Shown here: positions 6,084 through 21,266 of the stretch, one piece after another
Layout of the letters: each line of letters starts with the position of its first letter
Position numbering within the stretch: position 1 is the first letter of the stretch
Source: Escherichia phage D6
Strand: one strand, 5' to 3'
DNA length: 64,000 nucleotides
Sequence record: NC_050154.1
Position numbers and translations under genes: made by a program
The notes under the pieces: model-generated
Database searches by the model: none
What the model saw: the letters and a program-made list of their open reading frames with translations, nothing else
What the model was told of the DNA's origin: nothing

Positions 6084-6159
6084 TGGTGGCCCCTACCTGA
6101 CTTGAACCGGTGACCGTGCGATTATGAGTCGCCAGCTCTAACCACTGAGCTAAGGGGCC
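6084..6159 (-). tRNA. tRNA with anticodon CAT (Met or lysidine-Ile2)
   Basis: Hand-folded cloverleaf: acceptor GGCCCCT/AGGGGCC, D-arm GCTC..GAGC, anticodon loop CTCATAA, T-loop TTCAAGT, encoded CCA; one mismatch each in anticodon and T stems. Confidence 0.55.
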
Positions 6160-6279: not shown

Positions 6280-6443
6280 CATGAGTTCCTGAACGCAGCT
6301 TTAATAATCGGCAATAGCAATACCACAGCTACTGAAACCAGTGCCCCATCAGCCAACACCGACATCACTTTGCTGGTGAAATCCACCAGCACGGACAAAA
6401 CGAGAAAACCAATGGCGCACGCAATACGCGCCTTGCCAATCAT
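6279..6443 (-). CDS. Small membrane protein (54 aa; tciB-like position)
   Basis: Hand-translated micro-ORF; ATG overlaps the TerB-like gene stop (TAATG); two hydrophobic segments. Confidence 0.3.
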   Translation of the reverse strand: MIGKARIACAIGFLVLSVLVDFTSKVMSVLADGALVSVAVVLLLPIIKAAFRNS

Positions 6444-6877
6444 TACAGATAATCTTCCACACGAAGGCCCAAACGACGGCCTACTTCTTCCAGTACTTTG
6501 TGTTCTGCTGGCTCGATTTCACCGTCCGCTTCTGCAATCGTCAGCATGTTAACGAATACTTCTTCCGCTTCTTTTGGATCATTTTTGATATCTTCAATTT
6601 CGCGAAGGATATTCATGCGACCAACACGGAAACCAGCTTCCAGTTGCTCAGTAAAACGGGTGATTGTTGCGGTAATTTCGTTGCCAAAATGACTTAAGCG
6701 AGGATTAGAGCGGACAAGCTGATCAAGTTTCGCTGTTTCTTCCTTTTCGATTTCACCATCTGCGGCAGACACCAACAAACAGCCACCGATAATGGCCTCC
6801 ATCAGATCGCGATTCTCAACCCTTTTCAGCTCTACTTTTGCTGAAGCGACTTTCTTACCGAAAAATTTACCGAACAT
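6443..6877 (-). CDS. TerB-family protein (TciA-like)
   Basis: 144 aa; duplicated acidic EADGEIE motifs typical of TerB; P1 carries TerB-like tciA next to its tRNA genes. Confidence 0.55.
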   Translation of the reverse strand: MFGKFFGKKVASAKVELKRVENRDLMEAIIGGCLLVSAADGEIEKEETAKLDQLVRSNPRLSHFGNEITATITRFTEQLEAGFRVGRMNILREIEDIKNDPKEAEEVFVNMLTIAEADGEIEPAEHKVLEEVGRRLGLRVEDYL

Positions 6878-7144
6878 TGGTTATCCCTCAATAAACATGA
6901 CGTATTTATTAGGTTGCGGTGCCTGGTGCCTCCAGGTGACGTTAACCAGTTAACAATTAACGCCGGGATTTTTGACTTAACCACTAAGGAGGATTGTTTT
7001 AACTGTTCCGCGTGCGCTTAGCCGCATTCACCGCAATGGTAAGAGCACTTGGCTGGCTGGGCGGCGATGACGCCTGTACGCATTTGGTGATCCGGTTCTG
7101 CTTCCGGCATTCGCTTAATTAGCCAAATACTCTTAACGTTGCGC

Positions 7145-7231
7145 TGGCGGAGAGTAATGGAATCGAACCATCATCGCTTGCGCAATGGGACGGTTTTCAA
7201 GACCGCTTGAGCACCATGCGCCCTACTCTCC
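7145..7231 (-). tRNA. Atypical type-II tRNA-like gene (anticodon TGA, Ser?) or pseudo-tRNA
   Basis: Perfect 7-bp acceptor GGAGAGT/ACTCTCC with encoded CCA; anticodon arm GCGGT-CTTGAAA-ACCGT; variable arm with GCAA tetraloop; T-arm GATGG-TTCGATT-CCATT; D-arm not canonical. Confidence 0.4.
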
Positions 7232-7378
7232 GGCCGTTGTGGTGGCCGGTACTGAATCTCCGGCATACGGTGCAGCCAATTAGGACTACGGACGATCACC
7301 GCTCGCGAAAGGGAAGATTTGCGGCCGCATTTCCCTAACATCCAAGAAAGCTATCGCATCAGCCTGCGAATCCACCAC

Positions 7379-7466
7379 AACGTTGAGAACACTGGTTGTC
7401 ACGCTGCAACGCAACATTTATTCGTAGATTGGGATATGACCCCGTTACGCCAGTGTTCTCAACGTT
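7379..7466. repeat. Long-stem hairpin H1 (17-bp perfect inverted repeat, 54-nt loop)
   Basis: aacgttgagaacactgg ... ccagtgttctcaacgtt. Confidence 0.7.
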
Positions 7467-7608
7467 GTAGTGCCGGTTACGGTTCCGGCCAGGCCTCTTC
7501 CTCAACGGGGTGTTCTCCGTACGGACTACCGTTTATTGGTCGTTCCTGCGGTTTATGTTGTGAAGCCAGATGCTTATCTTCTGGTTGCTTCAAAGAGCTG
7601 CACTTCAT

Positions 7609-7695
7609 CACAACGGTAAGGGTACTTCGTAGGGATTCGAACCCTCTGCCAAGCTCGGCGATCTCCGACGTCGCAAAATACCCTTACCTGTTGTG
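7609..7695. repeat. Long-stem hairpin H2 (16-bp stem with one bulge) enclosing a T-arm-like GGTTCGAATCC element
   Basis: cacaacggtaagggta ... tacccttacctgttgtg; internal agggattcgaaccct; directly adjacent to tRNA-Thr; does not fold as a complete tRNA. Confidence 0.6.
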
Positions 7696-7696
7696 C

Positions 7697-7772
7697 TGGT
7701 GCCGATTAACGGACTCGAACCGCTGACATCCTGCTTACAAGGCAGGCGCTCTACCAACTGAGCTAAACCGGC
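7697..7772 (-). tRNA. tRNA-Thr (anticodon TGT)
   Basis: Clean cloverleaf folded by hand: acceptor GCCGGTT/AATCGGC, anticodon stem CCTGC/GCAGG, loop CTTGTAA, T-loop TTCGAGT, encoded CCA. Confidence 0.9.
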
Positions 7773-7774
7773 AT

Positions 7775-7850
7775 TGGCGATGGTGGATGGATTTGAACCA
7801 TCGACCCGTTGATTAACAGTCAACCGCTCTAACCGCTGAGCTACACCATC
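7775..7850 (-). tRNA. tRNA-Asn (anticodon GTT)
   Basis: Clean cloverleaf: acceptor GATGGTG/CACCATC, anticodon stem GTTGA/TCAAC, loop CTGTTAA, T-loop TTCAAAT, encoded CCA. Confidence 0.9.
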
Positions 7851-8353
7851 ACTTGCCGGGTACGTCTCCGGCGAGGGCTTCCACCTCCGTATGCTTTTCG
7901 GCGCACCGCGCCCTGGCTGCAATTCGGTAACAGGGGATGCACAACCCTGGCTTCCAGCGTGATTAGCGCCTTCAGCATGACGGGATATACCCGTTACAAG
8001 AAATTCCCCCAGGATGCCATTAAGCAATGGCTGTTACGCGGGAGGGACGTAACAGGTAAGGGCGCTGACCAGAAAGACCTGACCCTTCTCATTCATCTGG
8101 TTAATCACACCAGCGCCCTTGCCTGTTATGCCTCCCCGTTCCCTAATACACAGACGGGGACACTCTGCGGTCGATTTTTTGACGGGGGACGACTCATACC
8201 CCGTGGCGTCTGGCTTCTTAGGCCGCTACCATCATCAGATCATCGTTTGCATTTACTTTAATGGTCGGTTTCTAAACCGCCGCAAAGTCGCTAACCATGA
8301 CGAAAACCCTAAAAAAGCCCACCCGAAGATGGGCAAATACGCTACATCTCACA

Positions 8354-20917: not shown

Positions 20918-20974
20918 AGTTACGGCCTCGTAAGTTGATAAACAACCTGCGACCCGCTGTCAAACAGGTGGCAG

Positions 20975-21015
20975 GACGTGACAGGGTTGACAGACTGGCA
21001 CTTACGAAACCAGCA
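20975..21015 (-). ncRNA. c4-like antisense RNA core (boundaries approximate)
   Basis: Transcript would carry CGUAAGU and CUGUCAA, complementary in the correct antiparallel order to two repeated target pairs (GUUUGACAG ... ACUUACG) at 21112..21134 and 20928..20965, the latter overlapping the icd-like RBS. Confidence 0.4.
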
Positions 21016-21266
21016 GGCCGAAGCCTCCCCATCACGCCCCACCATAATTCGGGCGTAACGTGGTTTTACGGACACAAAAATACCGCAATATCGGAAATGT
21101 GCGGTTGTCCGCGTAAGTATTCAGGCTGTCAAACCCGGTCGCAGAATTTGCTACGACGGCATGAATATAAGCCTGAAAACATGGAAGATCAACTAAAAAT
21201 TTCAGCAATGGATGACTTCAGTCGATGATGCAGATCATACATTCCGATTTAGAAACAGCAAATTAA

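Follow-up and report, generated by a model that had tools for sequence, protein, structure and literature searches.

The window, that is, the whole stretch of 64,000 nucleotides of DNA that was analysed, comes from a P1/P7-like phage-plasmid, and its positions 7145-7231 are a genuine serine tRNA gene with anticodon UGA (Table 1). An earlier note on this DNA had placed a tRNA-like gene with this anticodon at the same positions and had proposed ARAGORN as a check: the program returned a tRNA-Ser (anticodon tga) at exactly 7145-7231, and the homologues and the covariation described below both support the gene. ARAGORN put it on the minus strand, a point that the earlier note did not contain. The resemblance to a tRNA is well beyond what chance would give, with homologues in 325 phage, 571 plasmid and 335 E. 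coli records.

In minus-strand order, the 5' half of the gene reads GGAGAGUA-GG-GCGC-AUGGU-GCUC-AA-GCGGU-CUUGAAA-ACCGU-CC and is followed by the variable arm; the 3' half reads CAUUGC-GCAA-GCGAUG-AUGG-UUCGAUU-CCAU-UACUCUCC-G-CCA. The acceptor stem (pairs GGAGAGU/ACUCUCC), the anticodon arm, the GNRA-capped variable arm, the T-arm and the encoded CCA recognised in the earlier note were all present on this strand. Directly 5' of the gene (window 7232-7251, minus strand) lies a hairpin, CCGGCC-ACCACAAC-GGCCGG, whose last two G's are positions 1-2 of the tRNA. This hairpin was found only in P7-type copies, the 5' flanks of other lineages being unrelated, and it might influence 5' processing.

Table 1. 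The tRNA-Ser(UGA) gene, its parts and the neighbouring genes (positions in the window)
Feature	Position	Strand	Description	Basis
tRNA-Ser(UGA) gene, probable (8/4) architecture	7145..7231	minus	87 nt with encoded CCA	ARAGORN, Rfam near-miss, homologues, covariation
Acceptor stem, 5' strand GGAGAGUA, tRNA positions 1-8	7224..7231	minus	A8 at 7224 opposite U at 7156	
Linker GG before the D-arm	7222-7223	minus	2 nt	
D-arm GCGC-AUGGU-GCUC	7209..7221	minus	4-bp stem, 5-nt loop with GG	
AA after the D-arm, ahead of the anticodon stem	7207-7208	minus	2 nt	
Anticodon arm GCGGU-CUUGAAA-ACCGU	7190..7206	minus	anticodon UGA at 7197-7199	
Long variable arm	7172..7187	minus	6-bp stem CAUUGC/GCGAUG, GNRA loop GCAA as cap	sequence
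T-arm	7157..7171	minus	4-bp stem AUGG/CCAU, loop UUCGAUU	sequence, covariation
Acceptor stem, 3' strand UACUCUCC	7149-7156	minus	part of 7145..7156	
Discriminator G73	7148	minus		sequence
Encoded CCA	7145-7147	minus		sequence
tRNA-Thr(UGU)	7697-7772	minus	canonical, upstream of tRNA-Ser	ARAGORN, Rfam
tRNA-Asn(GUU)	7775-7850	minus	canonical, upstream of tRNA-Ser	ARAGORN, Rfam
tRNA with anticodon CAU	6084-6159	minus	downstream of tRNA-Ser; tRNA-Ile in P7 and RefSeq relatives	ARAGORN ('Met')
TerB-family ORF	6443..6877	minus	144 aa, downstream of tRNA-Ser	

Neighbourhood of the gene

ARAGORN called four tRNA genes in the window (CAU, Ser, Thr and Asn), all on the minus strand, and the tRNA-Thr/tRNA-Asn pair scored 72.9 and 74.5 bits with Rfam. 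A spacer of 465 nt lies between tRNA-Thr and tRNA-Ser in the window; there is none in the SSU5-like elements (Cyrano and others), in which the gene directly follows Asn-Thr and the three genes stand in tandem as Asn-Thr-Ser. In P7-type elements, the TerB-family ORF and tRNA-Ser travel as a module.

Near tRNA-Ser, the window is about 92% identical to phage P7. The P7 homology ends at 8337, at a strong terminator-like hairpin (8334-8317), and the P1 homology that runs past tRNA-Thr ends near 7357, beside a terminator-like hairpin at 7369-7354; tRNA-Ser(UGA) is absent from P1. From these junctions, the tRNA-Ser/terB block looks like a swapped module.

The window contains the C4 antisense RNA, with C4 RNA and its a1/b1 targets at 20964-21170. 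Scanning the whole 64 kb for the P1/P7 C1 operator consensus ATTGCTCTAATAAATTT gave 0 matches at up to 3 mismatches, the P7 operator Op(ban) was absent from the window, and a sigma-70 scan gave nothing useful upstream. The missing C1 operator matches suggest either another immunity specificity or operators that lie outside the window. Because no C1 operator was matched and the P7 homology ends at 8337, the P7 model of a C1-controlled ban operon is not simply transferable to this element.

Several structured segments were noted around the gene. Directly downstream of tRNA-Thr, the minus strand of 7609-7696 holds an inverted repeat (7615-7627 / 7676-7688) whose stem, about 20 bp long, encloses a T-arm-like hairpin, GGGUUCGAAUCCC; neither ARAGORN nor Rfam made a call there. 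The segment also occurs in P1, beneath the 'plp' CDS, and part of it is found in Sashavirus and in P22-like phages of Salmonella; candidate identities are a remnant of a tRNA, an att-like duplicate and a hairpin used in processing. Within the Thr-Ser spacer, window 7373-7472 carries an inverted repeat of 23 nt whose arms are 96% complementary and lie 54 nt apart, and the spacer as a whole folds unusually well (-182 kcal/mol, z = -5.5). Between tRNA-Ser and the terB-like ORF, window 6915-7035 (minus strand) gave a sub-threshold match to the Rfam sRNA STnc100 (39.6 bits, threshold 47, E=1.5e-6), and the same place in P7 scored 43.0 bits. The TerB-family gene may have this STnc100-like segment as its 5' leader.

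Distribution of the gene

Window 7054-7300 is 100% identical to the Salmonella plasmid pYU39_89. P7 has a 98.9% identical copy that is unannotated in its GenBank record and was called by ARAGORN, as were the copies in Cyrano and phita32. The version in the rV5-like Vequintavirinae has 91 nt, 89-91% identity and the same 8/4 layout. An 8/4 tRNA-Ser(UGA) whose D-arm has a tetraloop (GUGG, AUGG) is present in Klebsiella Jiaodavirus and in Boggle, a Klebsiella phage of 113 kb, and a related 8/4 tRNA-Ser from a Klebsiella phage bears a pseudogene annotation.

Among complete E. coli genomes, 331/5,426 (about 6%) carried the gene, and 334 of its 336 places were on plasmids, P1-like or SSU5-like, with sizes near 90 kb or 110 kb. 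The earlier note had given P1 tRNAs for Asn, Thr and Ile only: that holds for P1, but a fourth is present in P7 and in hundreds of phage-plasmids of the P1-like and SSU5-like types. In E. coli plasmids, the common allele is annotated by RefSeq as tRNA-Ser.

About 90 nt 3' of the gene (window 7054-7144, minus strand) are about 83% identical in Vequintavirinae, for example in phita32 and HMD-6. As this flank is also conserved, tRNA-Ser and its 3' flank have moved together between virulent myoviruses and phage-plasmids. In phita32, the 8/4 tRNA-Ser adjoins an irregular tRNA-like gene (L003 1385-1483) that is unannotated in the record: ARAGORN called it as a 99-nt 'tRNA-???' with a 4-base anticodon (atcc), and it scored 35.5 bits with the Rfam tRNA model. 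In some P1-like plasmids, tRNA-Arg replaces tRNA-Asn as the first gene of the cluster (e.g. E. coli plasmid p92_MLI108-2, L156 881-957), and a gene for the Thoeris anti-defence protein Tad2 lies downstream. The tRNA cluster of P1-like plasmids is a variable cargo region.

Fold of the tRNA

For the analysis of covariation, relatives were gathered from IMG/VR phage sequences with two patterns, which fixed the D-loop, the anticodon loop and the T-loop, and were trimmed by acceptor complementarity. The set was divided on position 8, and the 58 distinct non-U8 sequences were aligned with MAFFT. The minimum-free-energy fold of the 87-mer was a non-cloverleaf rod for both alleles (A or C at position 12, see below); it was uninformative and was replaced by the energies of explicit cloverleaves.

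Two cloverleaves were compared: one with an 8-bp acceptor stem and a 4-bp T-stem (8/4), and a canonical 7/5 tRNA-Ser in which A8 is unpaired, G49·U65 is a wobble pair and a 3-nt connector precedes the D-stem. Since U65 of the window could pair either with A8 or, as G·U, with G49, the 8/4 assignment rests on covariation at the level of the class and on nearest-neighbour energy. Among the 58 distinct relatives, the 8:65 pair was A-U in 46, G-C in 7, C-G in 1 and other in 4 (Watson-Crick in 54/58), and we therefore take A8 as part of an eighth acceptor pair and the T-stem as four pairs. The 49:65 pair of the same sequences was mostly G·U (41), with A-U in 4, C-G in 3, G-C in 2 and other in 8. Where position 65 was C, position 8 was G in 7/7 cases, and in 5 of those 7 position 49 was a mismatched A. 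Counted over the whole non-U8 group, 8:65 was Watson-Crick in 58/62 and 49:65 in 9/62, being mostly G·U. The U8 control group was reversed: 8:65 was Watson-Crick in 2/25 (and paired at all in just 5/25), and 49:65 in 17/25.

Under 8/4, 97.8% of the cells were paired in the 58 relatives, versus 74% in shuffles and at most 50% in slid controls, and double-sided changes were seen in 17/21 helix pairs. All 4 pairs of the D-stem covaried (94.8% paired), as did 3/4 pairs of the T-stem AUGG/CCAU (4 pairs, 98.7% paired). G1:C, G2:C and A3:U were close to invariant across the class, and the discriminator was G in 51/62 and U in 11/62. In the window gene, the 8/4 fold gives an acceptor/T helix of 12 bp (8-bp acceptor and 4-bp T-stem), leaves the usual 2-nt connector ahead of the D-stem and is 3.4 kcal/mol more stable than 7/5 for both alleles.

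We regard the 8/4 fold as highly probable and the 7/5 fold as unlikely. The latter would draw on a G49·U65 pair that can form in the window and on a standard 49:65 pair in 50/58 relatives; total pairing is near equal (97.8% for 8/4, 97.5% for 7/5), and three A8 sequences (L080, L133, L145) plainly use C49-G65, leaving A8·G65 unpaired. Against the 7/5 fold, 8:65 tracks the changes at position 65 through A-U, G-C and C-G, while 49:65 is left as an A·C mismatch in 5/7 of the cases with C65 and the U8 controls show the opposite pattern. The 7/5 fold also needs a connector of 3 nt where 2 is usual, it carries the energy deficit given above, and the best Rfam alignment is to tRNA-Sec, a model with a long acceptor. 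A canonical class II 7/5 tRNA-Ser has U8, 7 bp in the acceptor stem, 5 bp in the T-stem and a D-stem of 3-4 bp closed by a loop of 8-11 nt; the window gene, by comparison, has A8, a 5-nt D-loop and a G·U at most as a fifth T-stem pair.

The two oddities in the earlier note can be reassessed on this basis. The A at position 8 is present, but it is no independent anomaly, being the eighth acceptor pair of the 8/4 architecture. The D-arm, described as non-canonical, does form only 3/4 pairs in the window (GCGC-AUGGU-GCUC: G-C, C·U, G-C, C-G); the D-arm of the class, on the other hand, is a compact yet regular covarying 4-bp stem with an AUGGU loop containing GG, broken in the window by a single A-to-C. 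The unpaired D-stem position is specific to the window allele, which the earlier note had not recognised. The odd look of this tRNA-Ser(UGA) thus comes from a described architecture plus one rare point mutation that unpairs one D-stem base pair.

Rfam models and the selenocysteine reading

At its gathering score (29-bit threshold), the general Rfam tRNA model did not report 7145-7231; the other three tRNAs of the window scored 58-75 bits with it. When the scan was made permissive, the top Rfam family for the gene was tRNA-Sec, at 43.1 bits (E=1e-6) against a threshold of 47, and the alignment showed a long acceptor stem with a T-stem of 4 bp. tRNA-Sec was also the top model for the homologues in P7 (46.6 bits), Cyrano (42.8 bits) and phita32 (41.5 bits), all below the same threshold. 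That general tRNA models fail and tRNA-Sec models nearly fire is explained by an (8/4) tRNA-Ser: allo-tRNAs and (8/4) tRNA-Ser are described as having been discovered as false positives for tRNA-Sec, and the latter as occurring in bacteriophages and proteobacteria (Mukai et al., 2017; PMC5389517).

A selenocysteine tRNA, or another recoding tRNA, is effectively refuted by the anticodon and by the 12-bp helix. tRNA-Sec (RF01852) resembles the gene in that its acceptor stem has at least 8 bp, its variable arm is long, its D-arm is compact and SerRS serylates it, as is predicted for the window gene, and it is the best Rfam family; the 43.1 bits, however, remain below the gathering threshold. The anticodon of the window gene is UGA, which reads the serine codon UCA, and not UCA, which reads the stop codon UGA; the acceptor/T helix is 12 bp and not the 13 bp (8/5) of tRNA-Sec; and the D-arm has a stem of 4 bp and a loop of 5 nt, where tRNA-Sec has 6 bp and 4 nt. 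A 9-bp acceptor stem, as drawn by the Rfam alignment, was rejected: its ninth pair, -1:73, is not conserved and was Watson-Crick in just 17/62 sequences.

The window allele

The D-stem of the window is GCGC/GCUC, versus GAGC/GCUC in P7, Cyrano, Vequintavirinae and most IMG/VR copies: an A12-to-C change at window 7220 (tRNA position 12) produces a C·U mismatch at the second D-stem pair. Only 6/335 E. coli records were 100% identical to the window allele, nearly all others being at most 98.9% identical. It is no sequencing error, since it turns up repeatedly: in plasmids of E. coli, in plasmids of Salmonella, and in IMG/VR contigs that have three different 3' flanks. The close family comprised 64 copies with 12 distinct sequences, in which 8/10 stem substitutions keep pairing. 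A double compensatory change, C:G to U:A at the loop-closing pair of the variable arm, occurred in 10 related copies, and A12C and U48A were the only pair-breaking variants. This pattern points to purifying selection on the family, with the window allele among the few variants predicted to be structurally damaging.

The earlier note had allowed for a pseudo-tRNA, an option that is limited to the C12 window allele. The window copy would then be a decaying or inactive member of the same family, in which A12C destabilises or mis-registers the D-arm: the RNA would be poorly folded, processed or charged, and the gene would survive merely as dispensable. We judge this possible but doubtful. In the explicit cloverleaves, the C·U mismatch costs 4.5 kcal/mol, and C12 permits an alternative register, GCGC/GUGC with an AUG triloop, that would bury the GG needed for contact of the D-loop with the T-loop. 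The RefSeq label of the 100%-identical copy is "tRNA-OTHER", versus tRNA-Ser for the A allele; the allele is rare and is one of the two pair-breaking variants of the close family; and its absence from P1 shows that the gene is not essential. Weighing on the other side, the window copy is one substitution from the consensus and all its other helices and conserved loops are intact, A12C being its sole pair-breaking change, where a pseudogene would be recognised by multiple disruptive substitutions or by lost conserved loops or ends. ARAGORN still calls it as tRNA-Ser, and its spread over plasmids of two genera and several flanks means that it has persisted. Many functional tRNAs tolerate a single mismatch in the D-stem. 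Finally, C is the class-consensus base at position 12 (C:G in 28/58) and equals C11 of the host serT. A12-to-C probably weakens the tRNA without necessarily abolishing it, and the chances that the C12 allele retains useful activity appear even.

Serine identity and probable role in codon supply

The host serT, whose sequence was verified in all 5,426 E. coli genomes, shares with the window gene the anticodon, the loop CUUGAAA, G1:C72, G2:C71, A3:U70, G73, the long variable arm and the encoded CCA. The long variable arm, G73 and related features are those used by SerRS, and the G73 discriminator argues against a Leu or Tyr identity. Of the options raised in the earlier note, an unusual tRNA-Ser is the best reading, on the strength of the ARAGORN call, the SerRS identity features and the RefSeq annotation of the common allele as tRNA-Ser; for a tRNA-derived regulatory element, there was no evidence of a regulatory, non-tRNA role.

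In the 49 long ORFs of the window, UCA was used at 14.2 per 1000 codons (21% of the Ser codons), ACA at 17.1 and AUA at 11.3. In E. coli K-12, UCA is used at roughly 7-8 per 1000, ACA at 7-8 and AUA at 4-5; the use of the three codons in the element is about double these values. They are the codons of the element's Ser(UGA), Thr(UGU) and Ile(CAU) tRNAs and, because the codons that the element uses frequently are those that its own tRNAs read, codon supplementation is the most economical role.

The most likely role, judged from the sequence, is that of a tRNA charged by the host SerRS and reading UCA-type codons. On the minus strand, the gene would be co-transcribed with the element's Asn, Thr and Ile tRNAs, and the RNA would be processed by the host and serylated by the host SerRS via the long variable arm, G73 and the G1:C72/G2:C71/A3:U70 pairs shared with serT. 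EF-Tu would deliver it, since its acceptor/T helix has 12 bp as in ordinary tRNAs, and it would decode UCA (UCG and UCU by wobble), supplementing a codon used about twice as often as in E. coli. The (8/4) and (9/3) allo-tRNAs tested in E. coli are described as folded, processed, serylated and used by ribosomes (PMC5389517). Two points speak against this reading: the host serT has the same anticodon loop, and P1 does without this tRNA.

The family very probably consists of translating tRNA-Ser, whose expression, charging and decoding we infer. Taken as a whole, the locus likely encodes a phage-plasmid elongator tRNA-Ser(UGA) of the (8/4) class, with the window copy as a rare allele.

Possible evasion of tRNA-targeting defences

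The unusual body could instead serve as a nuclease-resistant replacement or decoy for the host tRNA-Ser that escapes tRNA-targeting defences or toxins, which we find quite improbable. Phage tRNAs are described as able to evade or neutralise such defences (PMC10264068, PMC11464382). The body of the window tRNA (8/4 stem, mini D-loop, no U8) is strongly unlike that of the host serT, and virulent phages that are unrelated, namely Vequintavirinae, Jiaodavirus and the Klebsiella phage Boggle (113 kb), have the same architecture. However, the CUUGAAA loop is the same as in the host serT, so the known escape route through the anticodon loop is not used, and the codon counts already fit a supply model for all the tRNAs of the element that read A-ending codons. 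We know of no Ser-specific anticodon nuclease linked to these hosts.

The recurrence of the 8/4 body in P1-like and SSU5-like elements, Vequintavirinae, Jiaodavirus and Boggle is also the basis of a broader idea, to which we give little credence: that the body is an adaptation and not a neutral variant, for example one conferring insensitivity to a factor that recognises the elbow or the D-arm while charging by SerRS is kept. Such a factor, from the host or from a competitor, may be a nuclease, a modification-dependent checkpoint or near-UV s4U8 crosslinking; lacking U8, an 8/4 tRNA-Ser has no s4U8. If the body were adaptive, C12 could restore the SerRS-identity base C11 at the cost of pairing, a functional tuning and not decay.

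Significance

Returning to the (8/4) tRNA-Ser reading, our literature search found no description of a tRNA-Ser(UGA) in P1-like phage-plasmids. The (8/4) kind is already in the literature, and RefSeq already lists the gene as tRNA-Ser on hundreds of plasmids; the window gene is an unremarked member of the published class in P1-like phage-plasmids. The value of the result lies mostly in annotation and interpretation, namely in a fourth tRNA of the P7-type P1-like phage-plasmids that is missing from the P7 reference record. Automated pipelines treat the gene inconsistently (tRNA-Ser, tRNA-OTHER or pseudogene), and recognition of the (8/4) form helps to keep it from being miscalled as a selenocysteine tRNA or a pseudogene. 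This non-canonical tRNA architecture is present on phage-plasmids in about 6% of complete E. coli genomes, and E. coli with P1/P7 genetics offers a convenient natural system for the processing, modification and use of 8/4 tRNAs, in which A12 and C12 form a natural allele pair for the tolerance of D-stem defects.

Comparison with known systems

The copies in P7, Cyrano and Vequintavirinae are direct homologues with the same 8/4 layout, and Vequintavirinae also share the 3' flank of about 90 nt. They differ from the window in their paired GAGC/GCUC D-stem, and the Vequintavirinae copy additionally has a 6-nt D-loop and a variable arm that is 3 nt longer.

The tRNA-Ser(UGA) of phage T4 is likewise phage-encoded, has the same anticodon and lies in a tRNA cluster next to tRNA-Thr. 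It was considered as a characterised 8/4 example and rejected: it is canonical, with U8, a large D-loop and a 5-bp T-stem, and the 8/4 form is therefore not general in coliphage tRNA-Ser. Beyond the features that it shares with the window gene, the host serT is a canonical class II 7/5 tRNA: position 8 is U, the D-arm combines a stem of 3 bp with a loop of 11 nt, the T-stem has 5 bp, and one D-stem pair is C11:G24. In the phage-plasmid tRNA, position 8 is an A that pairs with U65, the D-loop is a mini-loop, and the pair equivalent to C11:G24 is A:U, or C·U in the window.

The closest described system is the (8/4) allo-tRNA class (Mukai et al., 2017, Nucleic Acids Res 45:2776; PMC5389517). As this class is described there, the likeness extends to the 12-bp helix split 8/4, the length of the variable arm, the discriminator G73, an anticodon for serine, occurrence in phages and proteobacteria, and sub-threshold tRNA-Sec matches; it may also extend to a compact D-arm of the tRNA-Sec type in which GG is followed by a pyrimidine. 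The D-arm of the window, with a 4-bp stem and a 5-nt loop, departs from the allo-tRNA consensus described as a 'long stem and tetraloop' (PMC5389517), and 2 nt (AA) stand between its D-stem and the anticodon stem. The stem becomes 5 bp if A15-U19 closes, so that the loop is either AUGGU or the triloop UGG, with a U after GG. The window gene has the 8-bp acceptor stem, the 4-bp T-stem, the long variable arm, G73 and the serine anticodon of an (8/4) tRNA-Ser, and its D-arm fits the class loosely.
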